Assembly: GCA_963834385.1 (NCBI GenBank)
Contig: CAWIBO010000002.1
Coordinates: 992,001 to 1,056,000, forward strand
Length of the DNA: 64,000 nucleotides
From: an uncultured Verrucomicrobiae bacterium
GTDB taxonomy: Bacteria; Verrucomicrobiota; Verrucomicrobiia; Chthoniobacterales; UBA10450
Direction: 5' to 3'
A program made the translations under genes and the position numbers. The notes below the pieces were generated by a model that did no database searches, had not been told where the DNA came from, and saw nothing but the letters and a program-made list of their open reading frames with translations. The first letter of the stretch is position 1, and the number at the start of each line of letters is the position of its first letter. This document shows, piece by piece, positions 11,476-30,292 of the stretch.

Positions 11476-12717
11476 ATGCTCGATCCACACCAGACAATTG
11501 CGGAACTAAAGGAGTTGCGCGCCCTTACCGGCGACGAGAACGGGGCGCAGCGGGTCGCCTTCACCGAAACATGGGTCGCCGCGCGCGACTGGCTCCGGGG
11601 TCTGCTCCAGCCGCTGGCCGACGAGATGCACCAGGACGAAGCCGGCAATCTCTGGGCCACCGTGGCAGGTGAAAACGCAGGAAAAGCACTCCTCATCGGG
11701 GGGCACATCGACTCGGTTCCGAACGGCGGCTGGCTCGACGGCTGCCTCAACACGCTCGCGGGTGTCGCCATTCTCCGCCGGCTGCGCAACCAGGGCGGTC
11801 GGCCGGCGGTGAGCGTTCGCCTGGTCGACTGGGCGGACGAAGAGGGCGCGCGCTTCGGCAAAAGCCTGTTCGGTTCCTCTGCCTGTTCCGGTCACCTCGA
11901 CATGGCGGAAGCGCGGGCGCTTCGGGACCGGGACGGCATTACGCTCCCGGACGCTCTGCAAAAGGTCGGGATCGATTTCGAGAAAGCGAAGGAATGCGGC
12001 CGGGAACTCCAAACCGCCGCGGCCTACCAGGAACTTCATATTGAACAGGGACCGGTCCTGCTCGATCTCGATCTCCCGCTCGGCACCGTCCTGGGCACCT
12101 TCGGGGTTGAACGCCACGCCATCACTTTCCGCGGCCAGGCCGCCCATTCCGGCAGCACTCCGATGAATCGCCGCCGCGACGCCTTCCTGGCCGCGGCCCG
12201 GATGAGCCCCGAGATTTACGCCATCGCCGAGCGCAGCCAGGGCGGTGTTTGCACCATCGGCTCCTGCACCACCCGGCCCGGCATCGTCACCAGCGTGGCC
12301 GAGGAATGCCGAATCACGCTCGACCAGCGCCATCTCGACGCCGCCGCCCTCGCCCGCATGTTCAAGGAAGCCCGCGCCGCGAGCGAACGATTCGCGCAGG
12401 AAGGAAACGTCAGCGTCGAGTGGGAACGCCTCTGGCAGATCGAGCCGATCCTGTTTCACGACGACCTGATCAAGCGGGCCGACGAAGCGATCGCGGAAAC
12501 CGGCGCGAAACCGCATCGTCTGCCTTCCGGCCCCTTGCACGACGCCGCCGAAGTCGCGCGGGCCGGCGTGCCCACGATCATGATGTTCGTGCAAAGCCTG
12601 CACGGCCTCAGCCACAACAAGATCGAGGACACCAAAGAAGAACATCTCGAGCTGGCCCTGCGCGCCTTCGACAAGCTGGCCGACAAAACAATCACCTGGA
12701 TCGCGGGCCGGAACTAA
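11476..12717 (+). CDS. M20-family N-carbamoyl-amino-acid hydrolase / beta-ureidopropionase
   Basis: HIDSVPNGGWLDG, DEEGARF, ELHIEQGP, GQAAHSG, SGPLHDA, GLSHN; pyrimidine-catabolism context. Confidence 0.88.
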   Translation: MLDPHQTIAELKELRALTGDENGAQRVAFTETWVAARDWLRGLLQPLADEMHQDEAGNLWATVAGENAGKALLIGGHIDSVPNGGWLDGCLNTLAGVAILRRLRNQGGRPAVSVRLVDWADEEGARFGKSLFGSSACSGHLDMAEARALRDRDGITLPDALQKVGIDFEKAKECGRELQTAAAYQELHIEQGPVLLDLDLPLGTVLGTFGVERHAITFRGQAAHSGSTPMNRRRDAFLAAARMSPEIYAIAERSQGGVCTIGSCTTRPGIVTSVAEECRITLDQRHLDAAALARMFKEARAASERFAQEGNVSVEWERLWQIEPILFHDDLIKRADEAIAETGAKPHRLPSGPLHDAAEVARAGVPTIMMFVQSLHGLSHNKIEDTKEEHLELALRAFDKLADKTITWIAGRN

Positions 12718-12794: not shown

Positions 12795-13928
12795 ATGCCC
12801 ACCCTTGCCACCACTGTCGACGGCCTCAAACTGCCCAATCCTTTTGTCATCGGTTCCGGTCCGCCGGGGACGAACCTCAACGTCATCAACAAGGCCTTCA
12901 AGGAAGGCTGGGGCGCCGTTATCGCCAAGACCGTCAGCCTCGATTCCTCCAAGGTGGTCAACGTCAGCCCGCGCTACGCCAAGCTTTATGCCGGCGACGG
13001 CAAGGAGGTGATCGGCTGGGAAAACATCGAGCTGATCAGCGATCGCAAATTCTCGATCTGGCTCGAGGAATTCAAAAAGTGCAAGGACCAGTTCCCCGAC
13101 GGCATCCTGATCGCCTCCATCATGGAGGAATACAACAAGGACGCCTGGGTCGAAATCGTGGAGCGCTGCCAGGATGCCGGCGTGGACGCCTTCGAGCTGC
13201 AACTTCTCCTGCCCGCACGGGTTGCCCGAGCGCAAGATGGGCGCGGCCATGGGGCAGGATGCCGGAAATCCTCGAGGAAGTCTGCGGCTGGGTCATGAGC
13301 GCCGCAAAAAAACCGGTCTGGGCAAAAATGACGCCAAACGTCACCCGCATCGAGGACCCGAGCCGGGCCGCCTTGCGCGGCGGCGCCACCGGTCTCGCCG
13401 CCATCAACACCATTCGCAGCGTCATGGGCGTCAACCTCGACACCCTCCGGCCGGAACCGGCGGTGGAAGGTTTCACCACCCCCGGCGGCTATTCATCCAA
13501 GGCGGTCAAACCGATCGCGCTTCGCATGGTGATGGAAATTGCCACCATGATCCGGCAGGAATTCCCCGGGCGTTCACTCTCCGGGATCGGCGGCGTCGAA
13601 AGCGGGAATGACGCCGCGCAGTTCATCCTGCTCGGGTCCGACACGGTCCAGGTCTGCACCGGCGTGATGAAGTTCGGCTACGAATGCGTGAAGCCGATGT
13701 GCGAGGAGCTGCTCGCCTTCATGGAAAAACACAAGTTCGAGACCCTCTCCGATTTCAAAGGCAAGAGCCTCGACTACTTCACCACCCACGCCGAGCTGGT
13801 CCGGATGCAGGGCGAACGCAAAGCCGCGCAAAAGGCGGCCGCGGAACAAAAGGAAGTGGTGAAAGCGGATGGCGACTGGAGCGGCGACTCCTTCGTGCAG
13901 CAGTCAAACGCCCTGGCGACGAAACTGA
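12795..13928 (+). CDS. preA: Dihydropyrimidine dehydrogenase FMN subunit (PreA/plant PYD1-type); indels near 13200, 13260 and 13919
   Basis: NPFVIGSGPP, GWENIELIS, NFSCPHG, WAKMTPN, GGYS, SGIGGV, VQVCT motifs across three frames. Confidence 0.9.
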
Positions 13929-13936
13929 CACCTCTG

Positions 13937-14473
13937 GTGAAACTCCAAGCCTCAAGCCCCAACCGCCAGATAAGCTCCAAATTTCAAGCCGCCTTGCGCA
14001 AATCCCAAACGCGTCTCGAATCCCAGGATTCCAGGTCGCACGGCCGCCGCCGTGCGGTCTTCAGTTACTCAAAAGCCGACAATTTCGCGGTCGCTTCCAG
14101 GGCACAGGAGACGGCGGGTCCGAACGGCGACGAAAGACATCCATTCGACCTGGAAGAACGGACGGCGGCCTTTGGTGAATGGATTGTGCGGTTTGCCAGG
14201 ACAATCCCGCGGGGCCCGGCAAATGATCGATTGATCAGTCAGCTTGTCGGTGCGGGCACCAGCGTGGGAGCAAACTATTGCGAAGCGAGTGAAAGTGTTT
14301 CGAAGAAGGATTTTCGTTGCACGATCGGGAGGTGCGTCAAAGAAGCCAAGGAAACCAAATTCTTCCTCCGCCTCATTGCGGCGGCCGAACCCACCCTCGC
14401 CGCGGAGGCACGGTCCATTTTCCGGGAAGCGAAGGAACTGCATTTGATCTTCGCGGCAATATTTCGCAAATGA
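13937..14473 (+). CDS. Four-helix-bundle protein (TIGR02436 / 23S-IVP-like)
   Basis: FDLEERT..F, QLVGAGTSVGANYCEA..S.KDF, KEAKET..FL signature; start uncertain. Confidence 0.88.
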   Translation: MKLQASSPNRQISSKFQAALRKSQTRLESQDSRSHGRRRAVFSYSKADNFAVASRAQETAGPNGDERHPFDLEERTAAFGEWIVRFARTIPRGPANDRLISQLVGAGTSVGANYCEASESVSKKDFRCTIGRCVKEAKETKFFLRLIAAAEPTLAAEARSIFREAKELHLIFAAIFRK

Positions 14474-14549
14474 AGACGAAGCGATCATTTTCGGAGCCTG
14501 GTTTTTGCTTGCGGCTTCCCTGAAGTTTGGATGTTGGTGCTTGGAGTTT
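13940..14549. mobile_element. Inverted-repeat-bounded element carrying the four-helix-bundle gene
   Basis: AAACTCCAAGC (13940-13950) and its exact reverse complement GCTTGGAGTTT (14539-14549); further complementarity and heptamer periodicity in both arms. Confidence 0.6.
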
Positions 14550-16119: not shown

Positions 16120-17502
16120 ATGTCACTCCTGATCAAAGGCGGCGAGATCGTGACGGCCGACGAACAGTACGTCGCCGACATTCTTTGCGAGGGCGACATC
16201 ATTTCCCGGATCGAGCCGGCCCTGGAGCCGCCGCCCGGCTGCGAGGTGATCGATGCCGCCGGCAAGTATGTCTTCCCGGGGTTCATCGATCCCCATGTGC
16301 ACATTTATCTCCCTTTCATGGGGACCGCGGCGAAGGACAACCACGAGACCGCCAGCCGGGCCGCTCTCGTTGGCGGGACCACCACCTTCATCGAGATGAT
16401 CTGCCCGTCGCGCGACGAAAAGCCGCTGGAAGCCTTCGAACTCTGGCTGGGCAAAGCGCAGGGCAACAGCGCCTGCGATTTCTCCTTTCACATGGGGGTG
16501 ACCCGCTTCGATGAGGCGGCGGAACATGACCTCGCGGAAATCGTTCGCCGCGGGGTCGCCAGTTTCAAGGTCTTCCTCGCTTACAAAGGCGCCTTCGGGG
16601 TCAACGATGAGGAACTCTACCGGACCCTCGCGCTGGCGAAAAAGCTCGGCGTCATCACCACGGCGCATTGTGAAAACGCGGACCTCGTGCTCGCGCTGCA
16701 GAAGAAACTGCTGAGCGAGGGGAAAACCGGCCCGGAATTCCATTACTGGAGCCGGCCGCCGGTGGTCGAGGCCGAGGGCGTGCATCATCTCATGACTTTC
16801 GCCGAGATGACCGGCGCGGCGGTTTACATCGTCCACCTGAGCTGCCTGGAAGCGCTCCAGGAAGCTGTGCGCGGCGCGAAGCGAGGCGTCAACGTCTCGG
16901 TCGAGACGCTGATCCAGTATCTCCTGCTCGACCGGACGGATGCCGAGAAACCGGATTTCGAGGGCGCCAAGTGCGTGATGTCGCCGCCCCTGCGCGACCG
17001 TTCCAACCATAACGTTCTCTGGGAAGGTCTCCGGGACAGAACGATCGCCACCATCGCGACCGACCACGCCCCTTTCGATTTTGCCGACCAAAAGCGCATG
17101 GGTTTGCAGGACTTCACCCGGATTCCAAACGGAATCCCTTCCCTCGAAGACCGGGTGAACCTTTTCTACACGCACGGCGTCAAGACCGGCCGACTCAGCC
17201 TTTCCACCTTTGTCTCCGCCGCGAGCACGGAGGCGGCGCGTCTCTTTGGTCTCTATCCGCGCAAAGGCGCTATTCAGGTCGGGAGCGACGCCGACCTGGT
17301 GGTTTACGATCCCGATTACCACGGCACGATCAGGGCGGCGGACCACCTGATGAACGTTGATTACAATTCATTCGAAGGAATGGAGATCGCCGGTCGCCCG
17401 CATGTGGTCACGGTGCGGGGGGAAATCGCCGCCCGGGACGGCCGGTTCGTCGGCGCCTTTGGGCGCGGGCGTTTCCTTGAGCGCAAGCCGACCCATTTTT
17501 GA
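16120..17502 (+). CDS. hydA: Dihydropyrimidinase
   Basis: PGFIDPHVH, GGTTT, SFKVFLAYK, HCEN, YIVHLS, MSPPLR, TDHAPF, IPNGIP. Confidence 0.95.
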   Translation: MSLLIKGGEIVTADEQYVADILCEGDIISRIEPALEPPPGCEVIDAAGKYVFPGFIDPHVHIYLPFMGTAAKDNHETASRAALVGGTTTFIEMICPSRDEKPLEAFELWLGKAQGNSACDFSFHMGVTRFDEAAEHDLAEIVRRGVASFKVFLAYKGAFGVNDEELYRTLALAKKLGVITTAHCENADLVLALQKKLLSEGKTGPEFHYWSRPPVVEAEGVHHLMTFAEMTGAAVYIVHLSCLEALQEAVRGAKRGVNVSVETLIQYLLLDRTDAEKPDFEGAKCVMSPPLRDRSNHNVLWEGLRDRTIATIATDHAPFDFADQKRMGLQDFTRIPNGIPSLEDRVNLFYTHGVKTGRLSLSTFVSAASTEAARLFGLYPRKGAIQVGSDADLVVYDPDYHGTIRAADHLMNVDYNSFEGMEIAGRPHVVTVRGEIAARDGRFVGAFGRGRFLERKPTHF

Positions 17503-18968
17503 TGGAACAGGCGTCGTCCCGCATCGATCCGACGAACTCGCTTTCGAACGAGGACCTTGCCCCGGTGCCGCTCGCACAGCGCACCTGGTCGAAGTGGAAC
17601 ATCGCCGCGCTCTGGGTCGGGATGAGCGTGTGCATCCCCACCTACATGCTCGCCTCCGGCCTGATCTCCGGCGGGATGAACTGGTGGCAGGCGGTCCTGA
17701 CCGTTTTCCTCGGCAACCTGATTGTCCTGATCCCGATGGTCCTGAACGCCCATGCCGGCACGAAATACGGCATCAGCTTCCCGGTGTTTGCCCGGGCCTC
17801 CTTCGGCGTGCATGGCGCCAATGTCCCGGCCATCCTGCGCGCCATCGTCGCCTGCGGCTGGTTCGGGATCCAGACCTGGATCGGCGGCTGGGCCATCTAC
17901 AAACTCGCCCTGGTTGCCTGGCCCGCGCTCGCGCAGACGCCTGATCTCGCTTTGCTCGGGATCAACGCCGCGCAACTTCTCTGCTTTCTCTCCTTTTGGG
18001 CGCTCAACGTCTGGATCTTCTGGCGCGGCATGGAAAGCATCCGGGCGGTGGAGGACTGGGGCGCGCCCCTTCTTCTTCTCATCGGCGTCGCGCTCCTCGT
18101 CTGGGCTTATCTCAAGGCCGGCGGCTTCGGCCCCATGCTCCGGCAGCCGTCACGCTTCCAGACCACCGCCGAGTTCTGGAAGTTTTTTGTCCCGGGCCTG
18201 ACCGGCATGGTCGGGTTCTGGGCGACGCTCTCGCTGAACATCCCGGATTTCAGCCGCATGGCGCGGAGCCAGCGCGACCAGATCCTTGGCCAGGCCCTTG
18301 GCCTGAACACCACCATGCCGTTTTACGCTTTCATCGGCGTGGCCGTGACCAGCGCCACCATGGTCATCTTTGGCGAAACCATCTGGGATCCGATTGAACT
18401 GATGTCCCGGTTCGACAACGTCGGGCTGATGCTGGTGGCGATGTTCGCCCTCACCCTGGCCACGCTCACGACCAATCTCGCCGCCAACGTGGTCGCGCCC
18501 GCCATCTCTTTTTCCAATCTGTCCCCCCGCCGCATCAGCCGGCGCACCGGCGGCCTGATCACCGGCGTCATCGGCATCGTCATGATGCCGTGGAAATTGG
18601 TGGCCGATCCAACCGGTTACATTTTCACCTGGCTCATCGGCTATTCCGCGCTCCTCGGACCGATCGGCGGCATTCTCATCTGCGATTATTTTCTGATTCG
18701 GCGGACCCGACTCGAGCTCGATGACCTCTACCGGACGGACGGCGTTTATTCCTACCGGGGCGGCTGGAACCTCGTTGCAATGGTCGCGCTGGTGGCCGGC
18801 ATTCTCCCGAGCGTTCCCGGTTTTCTCGGGACGGTCGGCGCCGTCTCGCCCGCGCAAGTCGGCCCGTTCCTCATGTCCCTTTACAGTTACGCCTGGTTTA
18901 TCGGTTTCGGTCTCGCTCTTGCCGTCTACTGGATCGGCATGAAAGTGCGGGGCTCCGCCCATCACTGA
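17502..18968 (+). CDS. NCS1 nucleobase:cation symporter (uracil/cytosine)
   Basis: NEDLAP...[42 protein letters not shown] overlap with hydA. Confidence 0.93.
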
Positions 18969-18973
18969 TCCTT

Positions 18974-20315
18974 ATGCAAAATCCCGAACTCCCGCCGTTT
19001 GATCATTCACCCCAGGCTTATCGCGGCCCTTCCGCCGAGGAAGTGCTCAAGCTTCGCCGCGAATTCCTCAATCCCGGCATCTTTCTCTATTACAAAAAGC
19101 CGATCATGCTCGTGGAAGGCAAAATGCAGTATGTCTGGGACGAATCCGGCAAACGCTATCTCGACGCCCTCGGCGGCATTGTCACGGTCAGCGTCGGTCA
19201 TTGTCATCCCGAGCTGGTCGAGGCGGCCCGCGCGCCAGAACGAGCTGCTCCAGCATTCCACCACGATCTATCTGCATCCCAACGTGGCCGAGTACGCGCG
19301 CAAGCTGGCCGGGAAAATGCCGGGCGACCTCAAGGTCTGTTACTTCGTCAACTCCGGCTCGGAGGCAAACGATCTCGCGCTGCTCATGGCCAGGGCTTTC
19401 ACCGGCAACTACGACATGATCGCGCTGCGCAACGCCTATCACGGCGGAAACGCCTCCGGCATGGGCCTGACCGCGCATCACACCTGGAAGTTCAATGTTC
19501 CGCACAGCTTCGGGGTGCACCACGCCATCACCCCCGATCCGTTCCGCGGCGCCTGGGGACGCGATAACCCGGAGGCCGGTAAAAATTACGCGGCGGATGT
19601 GAAGAGCCTGATCGATTACGCCACGCCGGGGCAGGTCGCGGGCTTCATCGCCGAATCCATCCAGGGGGTCGGCGGCTGCGTCGTTTTCCCGGATGGCTAC
19701 CTGAAAAATGTCTACGAACATGTCCGCGCGGCGGGCGGTGTCTGCATTGCCGACGAAGTGCAGTCCGGCTTTGGCCGGACCGGTTCGCATTACTGGGGGT
19801 TCGAGACCCAGGACGTCATCCCGGACATTGTCTCCATGGCCAAGGGCATCGGCAACGGCGCGCCGCTGGGCGCGGTGGTGACGACGCCGAAGATCGCCGC
19901 CGCCCTGGCGCAACGGGTTCATTTCAACACCTTCGGAGGCAACCCGATCGTCTCCACCATCGGCAGCGCCGTGCTCGATGTGATCGACCGCGAGAAATTG
20001 CAGGAGAACAGCGCCCGCATCGGCGGACGGATCCTCGAGGGCCTGCATCGGCTGCAAAAAAAGCACAACATCATCGGCGATGTCCGCGGCAAGGGACTCA
20101 TGCTCGGGATCGAGCTGGTGAAGGACCGCGCCACCAAGGAGCCGGCCAAAGCCGAGTGCGCGCAGGTGCTCGAGACGGCCAAGGAAATGGGGCTCCTGCT
20201 CGGCAAAGGCGGGTTGCACGGCCAGACCATCCGATTTTCCCCGCCGATGTGCGTGCACGAGCAGGACGCCGATTTCCTGCTCGAGGTTCTCGACCGCGCC
20301 TTCCAGTCGCTCTAA
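18974..20315 (+). CDS. Class III aminotransferase (AGXT2/PYD4-like, beta-alanine:pyruvate), one indel near 19230
   Basis: EGKMQY.WD...[48 protein letters not shown]. Confidence 0.9.
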
Positions 20316-24725: not shown

Positions 24726-27700
24726 TTAACCGCCGGGAGGCAGCGCGCTGAGGGATTTCGTTGTGGCTCCCATGCCGGTGAACGTGCCGGTGGTGGAACC
24801 GTTCCCGCCGAAGCCGGTGTAGTTCGGGTTATTGGTGTAAACGTTCGCGGGCAGGTTCCCGTTGATCGTCACCTGCACGTTGTTAAAGATGTTGACGGTA
24901 TTGGCCGCGATCGTTTTTGCGGCCGTGCCGTTGAGGGTGGTGTTGCCGGTAAAGTTGATCGTGCCGCTGCTTCCGCCGGCGTAGAGGCGGATGAGCGAAT
25001 TGCCGCTGAGCTGGGAATTGCCCACGTTGAGGACGCCATTGCGGCCGACCGCGCTCAGCTTCACGACATCGGCGCTGAGGGTGGAGTTGTTGACGGTGAC
25101 GGTTCCGGTGCCGCCGTTGTTCTGAACGTCGATGGTTCCGCGGTCCGCCTGTACCCTGGCGCCGTTCAGGTTCACCGCGCCGCCGCCGAGGTCATCTTGA
25201 TGGAGCCGCCGGAACCGCGGGCCGTGGCCGCGAGGAGGCTGTTCAGCTCGGCCGAGCTGGTCACGTTGATGGCCACGCCCGTCTTTTTCCGGCTTTCCAG
25301 CGTGATGGTACCGCCCTTGTCGCTGATCGCGCCGATTTCCGTCGTTCGACGACACTTCGATCTTCGATCCGACCGTGATGGTGTCGTCGGACTTGAGCTC
25401 GACTTTGCCGCCCTGGCCACCGGTCATGCCGGCGGTGCTGTTCAGGCCGGTCGTGGCGAGGATAGGGACGTTGACCGCGATGGCCCCCACGGTGTCCGCC
25501 TTAAGTTCGCCGCCATTTCCCCCGGCCTCGGCACGGGAGGGGGAGGCATCTCCGCCGGTGAGACTGGCGCTCCGGACGGCGGTGCCGGCAGAATCAAAGT
25601 TCAGGGTGCTGGTAACGAAGGTCACGCTGGAGGCATGCTGCGGCGCGCTGCTGGCCGTGCCGGAGGCGCCGTCCAGCTTGATGCCGCCGGTCCACTTGAT
25701 GTTGGGCGCGGAGATCGTCTTGCTCTCGGCCACCGGGCCGCTGAGGAGCCCGCCCGAACCGATGGAGAGCACGGTCCCGGCCGTGACCTGCTTTGCGCTC
25801 AAGGAACCGGCCGAGATGCTTTTGGTGGCGGTGATCTTGTCGCCGGCGATGAGGCCGCCGACACTGATGAGCCCGGGAGTGGTCGCCTCCTTGAGGGCGT
25901 ACAGATTGCCAGTAAGGACCAGGTCGCCCTTGAGATTGAACTTGAGAGTGTTGACCGAGAGTGAGCCTCCTTCGTAGGAGCCGTTGGTGAGGGTGATCTT
26001 GTCGAATCCGACCAGATCGAAGGCGGCGGCGTTGATGCCCCCGGCTTTCACCGTGATGTTGGAGGCGGAGGGCGCGATGGAGAAGTCGGTCAGGAGCGTG
26101 AGACCGTTTGAGTTAATATTCAGGGTCTTGAGCCGCGCGGTGTCGACGCCGCCACCCCGCCGTTGGCGGAGGCCAGGCTGATGACGCCGTTGCTCGAGTT
26201 CAGGGTCAGATAATCGGCGGAGAGATAGGCCGTGCTGGCATTAAAAAGAAGCGCGTCGGTTCCGGTAAGCGTGAGGGTGGGGGCAACAAGGCGGCCGAAG
26301 ATCTGGGTGTCGGCCGCCGCGAGAACGAGGGCGCGCGAGGCCTGCAGATTGGCGCTGGTGGCGACATGAAGATCCCCTGTCGCGCTCACGCTCAGGTCGC
26401 GTCCATTCATCCCACCGGCAAGGCTGGCTGAACCGGTGGTGTTGGCCTGGATGTCCTCCACCGCCGAGAGATTGCTGGCCGCACCGGTCACGAGGTCGCC
26501 GGAGAGGCTGAGGCCGATGTTCCTGCCGCTGGTGACAACCGAATTGATTGTCGCTCCCGCGGCGTTGGCCTGGAAATCCGCGCTGTTCACCGTCCCGTTG
26601 ATGAGCAGTTCCTTTGTCCCGGTCAGCTTGAAGGTTTTGCCACTGCTTCCGCCATCGAGGGTGATCCGCTGGCCCGAGATGGTGACATTGCCGCCGGCGC
26701 CGAGGCTGCCGCTGCCGTTGAGGATAAAATCCTGAGTCATGGTGAAAACCATGTCGGCCGCGGACTCGAGGGGTCCCCCGACGATGGCTTTCTTGCCGGA
26801 CACGCCGATGCTCTGCGTCTGCGCGCGATCGTTCATGGTCACGTTACCCTTGGCGGCGCTCAGGGTGAGTTTGGCGGAATTGGTAGTCCCGCGGAGAAGG
26901 ATGTCGCCGTTGAGAGAGGTGACGGCGATGTCCTTGGTGGTCGAGATGGAGCCAGTAGCCCCAAGGGTAAAATTTGTCCCGGTGGTGAAGGTGGCCAGAT
27001 CAGCCTGCAGCGCCTGGTTCACGGTCGCGTTTTTGACGTTGGCGACGAACGCACCCGGCGTTTGGATGGCGGCGTTGGTGGTGAGGTCCTTGCCTGCCGT
27101 GATGGAAAAGTTTTTCCCGCTGGCGGCGCCGTTCAGGGTCACGTTGTTCACCGCAGTGAGGCTGACGGAGTCCGTCGCGCGCAAGTTGCCAGAGGCCGAA
27201 AGGAGCAGGTCGTCCTTGTTATTGACGGTGAAATTGCGGGCGGAAATTGGACCGGCCAGGGTAACGTTGGTGCCTGCGATGTTGACGTCAGCACTATTGA
27301 CGGCGCCGTTGACCACGATGTTGGCGAGCCCGTTGAGACCGAGAGAGCCCGCGGTCGTGATTGTGCCGTCCAGGATGATGGAATCAGAAGCGGTCACGCT
27401 GGCATTACCGCCGAGATTAATGACGCTGCCGTTGCCCGCGCGGAAGGAAGTGCCGGCGTTAAAGGTGGCGTCCTTGCCGCTCAGGCTTCCGTTGAAAGCG
27501 ACACTGGGACCGGTCGCGACCAGGCTGGAGAGAGCCTCGGTTGTCCCGTTAAACGTCAAAGCGCCAGGGATTCCCCTGTTAGTCCCGGAGGTGATGGTCA
27601 CCACGTTGCCCCGGGTGGCGCCGTTCAGATTGATCAGGCCCGCCGAATTGATCGTGAGGTTTTTGTCCGGCCCGGTGGCGGAAAGGCTCGCCCCGCTGCC

Positions 27701-30221
27701 CAGGGTAAAGGACTGGCCAGCGTTGAATGTCAGTTTCTCGCCCGCGATGGCGTTGTTTGCATTCAGGACAGTGCCCGAAGCGACCAGGTTCTTGGTGGTC
27801 ACCGGTCCGTTAAAATTGATGGCGCCGTTTAACAAGAATCGGATTGGTTCCCGCAGAGAGGGTCATGGTGGACCCATTGTTGATCGCCCCCAGGTTCATC
27901 CCGCCGCCGGTGGTGATGGAGAGGTCGTCCGTATTCAGCGCCGCGGCGCCGGTCATGTTGAAATCGTTGGTCATGGTGAACCCCACCGTTTTTCCGGTGA
28001 CGGTATTGCTGATATTGGCCGTGCGACCCGAGGCGGCCAGGACATAGGAGGCGGTGAGTTTGCCGCTGACGTTGATGTCGGTCCCGGCAGTGAGGATGAA
28101 CTTTTTGCTCGTGCTGGTGGCGTCCTCGAGTTCCGAGGTGGCCCCCGCCAGGTTCATGGCCCCGCCCGTGACAATGGTCAGGTCGTCCGAGGCGTTGATC
28201 GTGCCGGCGCTGCTGAGATTCAGGTCCCCGCCGATCTGCAGGTTAAGGTCCTTGCCCGAGAGAGAACCGTTGATGGTGGCTGAATTGCCGTAGCCGAAGA
28301 GATCCTCGGCGTTGATGCTTCCGTTGACCACGAGCTGGCCGCCGGCGTAGACCTGCGCAAAACGGCTCGAGATCGCGCCGTTGATCACGGTATCGCCCAG
28401 GGCGGTCAGCGAGGCGGAGCTCGCCAGAATGCTGGCGGTCGCATCCACCGTGACGTTTTTCTCCGCGGCGAGGAGCAGGCTGGCGTCCTTCAGGTTCATG
28501 GAAGAGCCAAAGTTGACGTTGCCGTTCCGGGCATAGAGCTCAATGAGCTTGAAGGCACTTCCGTCCGCCTTGGTGAAGGTGAAGCGGTCGCTCAGGCTGA
28601 TCGACCCGTTCGCGGTCCCGAGGAAGAGGCCCTCAAGCCCGTTAAGATTCACCGTCCCGCCCAGGTTCGAGGAGGTGATGTCCGTCTGGCTGATGAGGGA
28701 GATGCGGTTGGCGCCGGCGCGGGTGAGGAAGCTGGGGTTGCCCTCCAGCTCCAGGGCGGAGAACGAGTAAACGCCGCTGCTGGAGAAGTCGCGGTTGTAC
28801 TGGTTGTCGAAATCCATCCGGTTATCAAAACTGGAGGTGCTTCCGAAAAGGAACTTGGAGGCGGAACCGGTCGCCGCGGTGCTGCGGAAGAACATTCCGG
28901 AGTCGGTCACCCCATCCGTGGTGATGGAGGGGGAGGCTTTCGAGGTGTCGATCAGCGTTCCCGACTTGATGATGTAAGGGCCGCTTGAGGCGATCCGGGG
29001 AGGCGTCGAAGAGGGCACCGCATTCACGTTGGGGGTTGGAGCGGGGTTGGGCGTTGCGCTCGCGCCGGCGAACGGTGTGGGAGTCGGTCCCGGCACGGTG
29101 GGAGTCGGCGTGGCGGTTGGCGTGGCGGTTGGCGTCGCGGTTGGCGTCGCGGTTGGTGTCGCGGTTGGTGTCGCGGTTGGTGTCGCGGTTGGTGTCGCGG
29201 TTGGTGTCGCGGTTGGTGTCGCGGTTGGTGTCGCGGTTGGTGTCGCGGTCGGTGTCGCGGTCGGTGTCGCGGTCGGTGTCGCGGTCGGTGTCGCAGTCGG
29301 TGTCGCGGTCGGTGTCGCGGTCGGTGTCGCAGTCGGCGTCGCGGTCGGTGTCGCGGTCGGTGTCGCGGTCGGCGTTGCTGTCGGCGTCGCACCACCACCG
29401 CCCCCGCCCCCGGCCGGTGAGTCGTCCGGGAACAACTGTTCAACGTCGTGGCGCTTCTTGATCGTTTCCATCAGGTCGTCCTCTGCCATCACGACCTGTG
29501 TCCCGCGTCCAAGGATGACAAGATTGGTATCGACGAGAGAATCGGAAGTCTTGTCGTCGGACTGCCGGGCGATCTCCTCGTTGATCAACGGCATGCTGGG
29601 CAGGGGCGGCACCGCTCCGTCGGGCCCGGGCATGTTCACCAGCGTCGAAGTGGTGACCACCGTCTTCAAATCAACCGTCACGGGATCCGGGATGCGTTTG
29701 GCGTTGGGCGGCATGATGACCATCTTGCCCGGGGTAAGAAGGAGGGAGTCGCCGAAACGACCGTTCATGGAAAGGCGGAGACTGCCTTCCAGCACCAGCA
29801 CCTTGATTGATCGGGCCGGACGATACTCGAGCAGGATCGTCGTCCCCGTGATCGAAGCGGTCACGGCCGCGGTCCGGATTTTCGCGCCGCCCAGGCCTTT
29901 CGGGACCTGCAGCAGCATGGTGCCCTCTTTCAGGGCCATCTCGCGAGTGCCGGGCTTGAAACTGAAGAACGTCTCAGGCCCGATGCGGGTCAGGGTGTTG
30001 TCCTGAAAGCGGATCTCGGAGCGCGATTTCACGCCGGTTTTCAGGCCGATATCATCCTTGATGACGTCATCCACCCGGGCGGGCTGGATGCCGGCCGGTT
30101 GCACAAGGTTCACTTGGTTGATCACCTTGGTGACCCGCGCCTCGGTAAGGGGGGCGGCGTGGGCGGTGAGAGCGCCGACGGTGAGAAAAAGAGCGGGGAG
30201 GAAATAGCGGACACAGTTCAT
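24726..30221 (-). CDS. Giant (~1800 aa) secreted FecR-domain / TPTA-linker / beta-helical adhesin-like protein; indels near 27830, 26160, 25330 and 25190
   Basis: Signal peptide, FecR-like [21 protein letters not shown]...[17 protein letters not shown] repeat, then G/N/S/T-rich haemagglutinin-like repeats continuing through ORFs 27810-30278, 26120-27835 and 24726-26051. Confidence 0.75.
29104..29391. repeat. 12-bp tandem repeat, about 24 units, encoding (TPTA)n
   Basis: GCGGT(T/C)GG(T/C)GTC units in blocks of identical variants. Confidence 0.95.
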
Positions 30222-30292
30222 AAGGGGAATCTCCGCCCGGTGGGGGAGCAGAAGGCGTGCCGCTGCCATAATTTCCATAACGTTAAATGCCT

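Follow-up and report, generated by a model that had tools for sequence, protein, structure and literature searches.

A plant PYD1-type dihydropyrimidine dehydrogenase without iron-sulfur domains in a reductive pyrimidine operon of a Verrucomicrobiae bacterium

The pyrimidine operon and its genes

The window, i.e., the entire stretch of 64,000 nucleotides analysed here, comes from a soil bacterium and contains a gene for a dihydropyrimidine dehydrogenase (DPD) of the PYD1 type, which sits in a full reductive pyrimidine operon. The genes and features of the operon are the following:

11476..12717, + strand: M20 enzyme of the N-carbamoyl-beta-alanine amidohydrolase type, in the PydC role (step 3); TIGR01879, 298 bits (cut-off 204), and Pfam M20
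12795..13928, + strand: PYD1-type dihydropyrimidine dehydrogenase, an FMN barrel that lacks Fe-S and FAD domains; both large pieces match PF01180 and NF006183
13201..13221, + strand: active-site loop NFSCPHG (pig DPD N668-C671-H673); frame reading and alignment
13769..13928, + strand: C-terminal tail of the PYD1 type, TTH-helix-DxxWxGDxFV, where PreA has its 2[4Fe-4S] domain; alignment and model of the relative P0002
14108..14473, + strand: four-helix-bundle gene (23S rRNA IVP family), start uncertain; PF05635, TIGR02436
14555..16089, + strand: CoA-acylating (methyl)malonate-semialdehyde dehydrogenase (MMSDH), two frame changes; TIGR01722, 554 bits (cut-off 448.5)
16120..17502, + strand: dihydropyrimidinase (step 2); TIGR02033, 517.6 bits (cut-off 393.25)
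17502..18968, + strand: NCS1 nucleobase permease; TIGR00800, 403.9 bits (cut-off 353.1)
18974..20315, + strand: class-III aminotransferase, one frame change; PF00202
20327..20767, + strand: cytosine/nucleoside deaminase-family protein; PF00383

Judging from its context, the class-III aminotransferase is likely a beta-alanine transaminase. The gene neighborhood was compared across 160 related loci (80 from GTDB and 80 from metagenomes, mostly of Verrucomicrobiota and not independent of one another), with neighbor families clustered under a codon filter against antisense ORFs. The carbamoylase was found in 101 of these loci, MMSDH in 108, dihydropyrimidinase in 95, the permease in 60, the aminotransferase in 55 and the deaminase in 17. 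Among the 85 loci that extend for 3 kb on both sides, the corresponding numbers are 61, 76, 70, 49 and 45 for the first five families.

The IVP-family gene is flanked by an imperfect inverted repeat of 41 nt (13940-13980 and 14509-14549). The family occurs in only 18 of the 160 loci, and the gene with its repeats therefore looks like a sporadic insertion into the operon. In 13 of the 160 loci a nitrilase-family (CN_hydrolase) gene lies beside the reductase (e.g., L182:9009-9851); it probably codes for a beta-ureidopropionase, which may replace the M20 carbamoylase.

Reading frame of the PYD1-type gene

The gene starts with the ATG at position 12795 (+ strand; N-terminus MPTLATT). The original prediction took 12795-13928 as a single gene stretch, but this stretch is not one open frame: it is split by single-base insertions that the earlier reader missed. 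Frame shifts are located near 13197-13200 and 13259-13261, and we infer a third near 13919-13924, because the frame otherwise continues into the next gene. With three extra bases allowed for, the reading frame of the initial ATG leads to the TGA at 13926-13928. The gene is thus broken by two, probably three, insertions, and the catalytic NFSCPHG loop falls in the short middle frame between the first two breaks.

The breaks are most likely errors of the long-read assembly. Compared with locus L004, the window has additional bases at positions 13197 and 13259. In short-read contigs from related organisms, which are relatives rather than reads of the source strain, one base is missing at 13200 (in 5 contigs from 2 runs) and at 13261 (in 5 contigs from 3 runs). 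The source genome (G000; 2.9 Mb in 5 contigs, 89.6% complete) contains a single copy of the gene. Of its 111 testable genes, i.e., those with a close homologue, 17 show a frame change, a number that represents a lower bound; two neighbors in the same operon, MMSDH and the class-III aminotransferase, are also frame-changed.

Sequence and structural features of the protein

When the gene is read through, with X placed at each break, the protein matches the intact relative P0002 at 89% identity. Over residues 2-372 it is 57-66% identical to 13 named PYD1 proteins of green plants and algae (12 of the 13 at 61-66%), compared to 37-46% for six Fe-S-containing PreA/DPD-type barrels. The likeness to plant PYD1, originally claimed from recall of the Arabidopsis protein, thus holds for the named plant and algal proteins, among them that of Brassica rapa (62%); the Arabidopsis sequence was outside the set.

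Examination of 12 positions of pig DPD, numbered by alignment and including K574, N609, N668, C671, N736 and T737, shows that all of them are retained in the read-through. We take these residues to serve in FMN binding, substrate binding and catalysis. The same 12 positions are invariant in 258 of 258 bacterial and 119 of 119 green-type rows, which were picked by their tail motif (258 of 279 bacterial candidates, and all 119 of P0274-P0392, the unnamed ones being presumed green).

AlphaFold models of P0002, built from 34 and 125 rows (pLDDT 75 and 92, respectively), exhibit a TIM barrel followed by two C-terminal helices, and it is the model with a mean pLDDT of 92 in which the tail appears as two helices. 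The first model has pig DPD as its top match both in Foldseek (E 5e-28) and in VIA (Z 35.8, rmsd 2.3, 294 aligned). The fold, an FMN barrel free of clusters, is shared with class-1A and class-1B dihydroorotate dehydrogenases (DHODHs) and the fungal dihydrouracil oxidase (Z about 30-31). Identity to these enzymes is about 22-25%, and the source genome has a separate class-2 pyrD and no PyrK. Since a separate class-2 pyrD is found in the source genome and in four relatives, we rejected a role as biosynthetic DHODH for the PYD1-type enzyme. Another class-2 pyrD-like match is spread over three frames at G000:C4:3948-4796; C4, of 10.9 kb, is possibly a redundant low-quality contig.

The C-terminal tail, with the pattern TTH-helix-DxxWxG[DE]xFV, is common to the bacterial proteins of this type (hereafter short type) and green plants and is not present in Fe-S PreA. 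In the window, LDYFTTH is encoded at 13769 and the DGDWSG motif, as originally reported, at 13868. The reported lack of CxxCxxC motifs is likewise borne out in every + frame of 12795-14000, where the sole CxxC, a CHHC, falls in a frame that does not code for the protein. Altogether, 54 positions reach a conservation of 90% or more in the greens as well as in the bacterial short type and stay below 35% in 53 Fe-S rows. The invariant cysteines of the short-type family are the catalytic Cys and C304 only, with no conserved CxxC pair. There is no transit peptide; the bacterial protein begins at the barrel, as expected for a bacterial orthologue.

We are highly confident that the gene product is a pyrimidine reductase. 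Its assignment as the bacterial orthologue of green-plant PYD1, which would catalyse the first step of uracil and thymine catabolism (uracil to dihydrouracil), is well supported by sequence comparison. The NCBI model for PreA, NF006183 (cut-off 335), is exceeded by both the intact P0002 (379.9) and the Brassica PYD1 (394.4). It does not tell the short type from canonical PreA, and databases therefore call the family PreA. The label "NAD-dependent subunit PreA" thereby masks what distinguishes the short type.

Relation to plant PYD1 and distribution

In a barrel-only tree of all 84 rows, the bacterial short type and green plants group together (SH-aLRT 100). The same grouping is obtained at 100/99 under a mixture model with 60 rows, i.e., the 84 minus 24 long or redundant ones, and with the tail columns excluded. 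The protein thus branches with green-plant PYD1 and not with Fe-S PreA; a place among the latter would have spoken against the original prediction. In the 60-row tree the bacterial short type forms one clade (100/97) and the greens another (97/87), the two being sisters, and three divergent Fe-S-less proteins branch next (86/94). The trees took in no cyanobacteria, red algae or Chlamydiae; among the matches listed, those with a name are all green plants or algae. Of the proposal that the bacterium is a possible relative of the donor of the plastid enzyme, the relationship stands as one of sister groups, and plants are not nested within the sampled bacteria. Because the two clades are sisters, the tree gives neither a direction of transfer nor a donor lineage. 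The divergent Fe-S-less homologues, which include the three on the tree (P0137, P0184, P0189, P0220, P0251 and P0451 in all), are 35-44% identical to the window protein, and some of them have a related tail.

In an even sample of 250 Verrucomicrobiota genomes, the short type occurs in 7 and a canonical-type PreA in 24. The nearest named related loci belong to Chthoniobacterales, and the short type occurs in the named species Phragmitibacter flavus (WP_138088978.1). Beyond Verrucomicrobiota, single names were found (Lacipirellulaceae and a Magnetospirillum MAG), and the Atlas clusters with the short type, which provide leads only, are headed by Planctomycetota and Acidobacteriota. A single query of viral contigs returned no relative of the PYD1-type protein; plasmid relatives amount to 85 records, all below 60% identity.

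Comparison with known systems

Recombinant plant PYD1 has been reported to be inactive (PMC2713857, PMC9930899). Zrenner 2009 (PMC2713857) explained the inactivity in vitro by the absence of a GltD-type domain, whose partner role was left unassigned, and Cornelius 2011 (PMC3223058) found Arabidopsis PYD1 inactive when cytosolic. In Lopez 2023 (PMC9930899), rice DHPD was inactive with NAD(P)H and no PreT-like plant protein was found; as the original prediction had stated, the electron donor of the plant enzyme was still called unresolved in that paper. The pyd1 mutant accumulates uracil and thymine (Gao 2023, PMC10415118). In Wang 2020 (PMC7332683), the clostridial PydAc accepts ferredoxin and keeps and needs its clusters. 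The survey in that paper required a 4Fe-4S domain and so excludes the short-type class by design. In the part of Barba 2013 (PMC4016543) that was available, Verrucomicrobia are unmentioned and the sole match to "plant" is the title of a reference. Our search, which left most subscription journals and supplements (including Supplementary Fig. 1 of PMC9930899) outside its range, found no published bacterial PYD1-type enzyme and no plant donor. The bacterial PYD1-type enzyme is real and conserved; within this search it had not been described before, and in databases it is filed as PreA.

Like PYD1/DPYD of green plants (Arabidopsis PYD1, rice OsDHPD), the bacterial form belongs to the same clade, carries the same tail and is devoid of Fe-S and FAD domains. 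Unlike them, it lacks a transit peptide, its gene is part of an operon, and the bacterial proteins make up a sister clade of their own, with a predicted activity. The FMN barrel and the 12 checked residues are the same as in E. coli PreT-PreA, PydX-PydA and mammalian DPD (PDB 1GT8); in contrast to these systems, the short type has no C-terminal 2[4Fe-4S] domain, and PreT or PydX is absent from its vicinity and from many of the genomes. The clostridial PydAc shares with the short type the lack of an FAD/NAD(P)H module, the location in a Pyd operon and an external donor, whereas PydAc retains and needs two ferredoxin domains and the short type has none (for PydAc, PMC7332683).

Search for a redox partner

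As originally noted, no preT or pydX gene lies in the operon: PreT-like and 2[4Fe-4S] genes are both absent from the entire window. A PreT profile, built from fused proteins, matched none of 167 short-type loci, compared to 16 of 20 control loci that were taken from the 24 canonical-PreA genomes; the C-terminal 2[4Fe-4S] ferredoxin domain is present in all 20 controls. Ferredoxin and FNR-like profiles also matched 0 of the 167 short-type loci. In the source genome, the matches of the PreT profile are TrxB/Lpd-type FAD folds only.

The search was then extended to the genomes, as the original prediction had proposed for preT. In the 89.6%-complete source genome, PF14691 (the PreT/GltD-type domain) has 0 matches, and gltB and gltD were not found. 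Searches of 57 carrier genomes, which drew on 50 of the 80 GTDB loci, returned a PF14691 protein in 32 cases and none in 25. As G081 and G298 are one genome, the latter correspond to 24 of 56 distinct genomes. The domain is also missing from three of the seven carrier genomes rated 99-100% complete. When 20 of the 30 returned PF14691 loci were scanned, 10 proved to be GltD (TIGR01317), and the flanking gene checked beside a GltD-type gene was GltB; the other 10 are of the TIGR01318 type, which NCBIfam does not separate from PreT.

Since PF14691 is absent from the source genome and from 24 of 56 carriers, a PreT/GltD-type subunit is not required by the class. This conclusion is well supported, though such a partner is possible in some carriers. 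The alternative raised from the outset, that a PreT with a ferredoxin-domain partner is needed, thus finds no support in the 167 loci or in the three near-complete genomes without the domain, and the comparison of genomes removes the GltD/PreT-like partner hypothesis for the bacterial form.

Several other candidates were considered as redox partners and rejected: (i) the IVP-family gene, whose four-helix bundle is not a redox protein; (ii) SufS and SufU (20 and 19 of the 160 loci, respectively), rubrerythrin-VIT1 and an NDH-2-like gene (three of seven complete-genome loci), all of which reflect lineage-limited synteny and are absent from the window; (iii) PyrK, for which PF10418 is clear in 4 of 57 genomes and absent from the source genome; and (iv) a flavodoxin as universal donor, as the source genome has none and free-standing frames occur in only some of five relatives.

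A separate observation concerns G000:C2:526073-528484 (L198:4074-6485), which codes for an 804-aa protein that combines a membrane region with two redox domains, one a TrxB-like FAD domain and the other of the 2[4Fe-4S] type. The gene is located just upstream of a deoC-like gene, near an aldehyde dehydrogenase.

Candidate electron donor of the bacterial enzyme

As no partner is linked to the gene, the reductant is probably a housekeeping one. We consider the chances about even that the donor is an acidic housekeeping ferredoxin, reduced by an FNR-like flavoprotein. The reaction would proceed as follows: (i) By homology to pig DPD, the reduced FMN would pass a hydride to the pyrimidine, and the equivalent of C671 would protonate it. 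(ii) A soluble housekeeping ferredoxin would return the FMN to its reduced state from outside, in two steps of one electron each, and may dock at the site vacated by the lost 2[4Fe-4S] domain. (iii) In the source genome, the putative donor would be a 77-aa acidic ferredoxin with a single [4Fe-4S] cluster, to which an FNR-like flavoprotein, the stand-alone FAD/NADPH protein of the CysJ type, would pass electrons from NADPH; the plastid counterpart would be ferredoxin and FNR. (iv) For the later steps the operon encodes dihydropyrimidinase, carbamoylase, aminotransferase and MMSDH, and it also has genes for a permease and a deaminase.

Searches with PF00037 and PF00111 revealed no small ferredoxin in the source genome or in near-complete relatives. 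The resulting view that the source genome has no ferredoxin was overturned by a scan of small Cys-rich genes, which found two small acidic single-cluster Fer4_13 ferredoxins (C2:798474-798704 and C1:46470-46697; net charges -12 and -8). The family is present in all 57 carrier searches and equally in 36 of 36 non-carrier genomes. Its presence therefore shows availability only and merely permits the ferredoxin model, against which stands its absence from all 167 short-type loci.

A CysJ-type FAD/NADPH protein without a flavodoxin domain is encoded in the source genome at C1:52322-53467, and matches occur in 50 of the 57 genomes (full-length CysJ being counted), the other seven being incomplete MAGs. 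Comparison of coordinates shows that, in 10 of these 50 genomes, the stand-alone CysJ-type gene and a ferredoxin paralogue are no more than 2 kb apart. This proximity suggests that the two likely form a ferredoxin/FNR-like pair of Verrucomicrobiae, and a specific candidate pair can thus be named for the bacterial form. The CysJ-type FAD gene of the source genome is itself broken; in the interval G000:C1:46470-53467 (L222), the ferredoxin and the CysJ-type gene are separated by a cNMP/4Fe-4S gene and by a gene that looks like one for a multiheme protein.

The evidence on docking is mixed. The linker of the tail is basic, with a median charge of +4 in both the bacterial and the plant groups. The charged positions specific to the short type comprise 8 basic ones (K70, K80, R235 and K252 of P0002 among the type-specific basic residues) and 6 acidic ones; as the latter are equally type-specific, the basic tail may merely bind its own barrel. 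Plastid ferredoxin is a [2Fe-2S] protein, and a single docking site would therefore have to serve both this and the bacterial [4Fe-4S] type. PydAc without reconstituted Fe-S clusters showed no activity even with reduced methyl viologen (PMC7332683); by analogy, this warns that the FMN of a DPD barrel may not be reducible directly from outside.

Alternative explanations

An alternative that we regard as unlikely, though appreciable, is that the same reaction draws on some other reductant of the housekeeping kind. Candidates are free FMNH2 from a flavin reductase, thioredoxin, dihydrolipoyl groups and an unlinked protein yet to be recognised. The loci lack a linked partner, as this would predict, and the source genome contains TrxB- and Lpd-like genes as well as the CysJ-type module, a possible flavin reductase. 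A requirement for the plastid only could fit lipoyl or flavin pools as well. FMNH2-consuming enzymes, however, usually come with a linked reductase, and none was found; the family also lacks the conserved CxxC pair, its only invariant cysteines being those named above. On the side of this alternative, PydAc required added FMN, and flavin can thus be loosely bound in the fold (PMC7332683).

A self-sufficient ping-pong mechanism, in which NAD(P)H, dihydroorotate or another metabolite would reduce the FMN in the pyrimidine site, much as fumarate reoxidises the flavin of class-1A DHODH, appears improbable. It would make a partner gene unnecessary, in keeping with the 167 loci, the fold is common to class-1A DHODHs, and the 54 short-type-specific positions could reshape the site. 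Rice DHPD, a truncated and tagged protein, was nevertheless inactive with uracil and NAD(P)H, with dihydrouracil and NAD(P)+, and with dihydroorotate and fumarate or DCIP (PMC9930899), and cytosolic PYD1 is inactive in planta (PMC3223058).

We consider it very improbable that the enzyme relies on an FAD/Fe-S subunit of the PreT/GltD type from another locus, the arrangement that Zrenner et al. assumed for plant PYD1. The PF14691 proteins of 32 genome searches, half of the 20 scanned being inseparable from PreT, would allow for it, but the domain is missing from the genomes listed above, the other half are GltD, and the enzyme has none of the C-terminal clusters that form the bridge to FMN in DPD.

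Equally doubtful is an enzyme working in the oxidative direction (a dihydrouracil oxidase or dehydrogenase, like the fungal DHO) or an inactive relic in the source genome: fungal class-I-like FMN enzymes do oxidise dihydrouracil with O2 (PMC9585004) and the copy has frame breaks, but it is the sole PydA-like gene in an operon built for the consumption of dihydrouracil, mutants of the plant orthologue build up uracil and thymine (PMC10415118), and the breaks fit the error pattern of the assembly.

Implications for the plant enzyme

A bacterial plant-type form with neither iron-sulfur domains nor a nearby partner offers a system for finding the electron source of the plant enzyme. The original prediction of a bacterial model for the reductant route is sustained by the PYD1 clade and by the lack of a PreT or Fe-S partner in the 167 loci; the copy in the window, however, is frameshifted. 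The bacterial orthologues, at about 60-66% identity, make the plant reductant question, open since 2009, directly testable, as they need no trimming of a transit peptide and come with a small, known redox inventory.

More tentatively, these proteins may constitute a fourth class of DPD, confined to some bacteria of the PVC/Acidobacteria type and green plants, which would consist of a bare FMN barrel with a two-helix tail and be reduced directly by soluble ferredoxin. If so, the electron donor of plant PYD1, sought since 2009, would be named, the idea of a missing GltD-like partner would be retired, and the plastid enzyme would be traced to a non-cyanobacterial gene exchange with these bacteria.

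Other observations in the window

Two further features of the window were noticed by eye. An ORF at 1655-2462 contains STFK and KTG, which we take to be motifs of class-D beta-lactamases and penicillin-binding proteins, and it looks like a member of this group. On the minus strand, 24726-30278 contains several frames that appear to belong to one long secreted protein broken up by frame changes; the start of this protein is FecR-like, and it has a Pro-Thr-Ala-Thr repeat.
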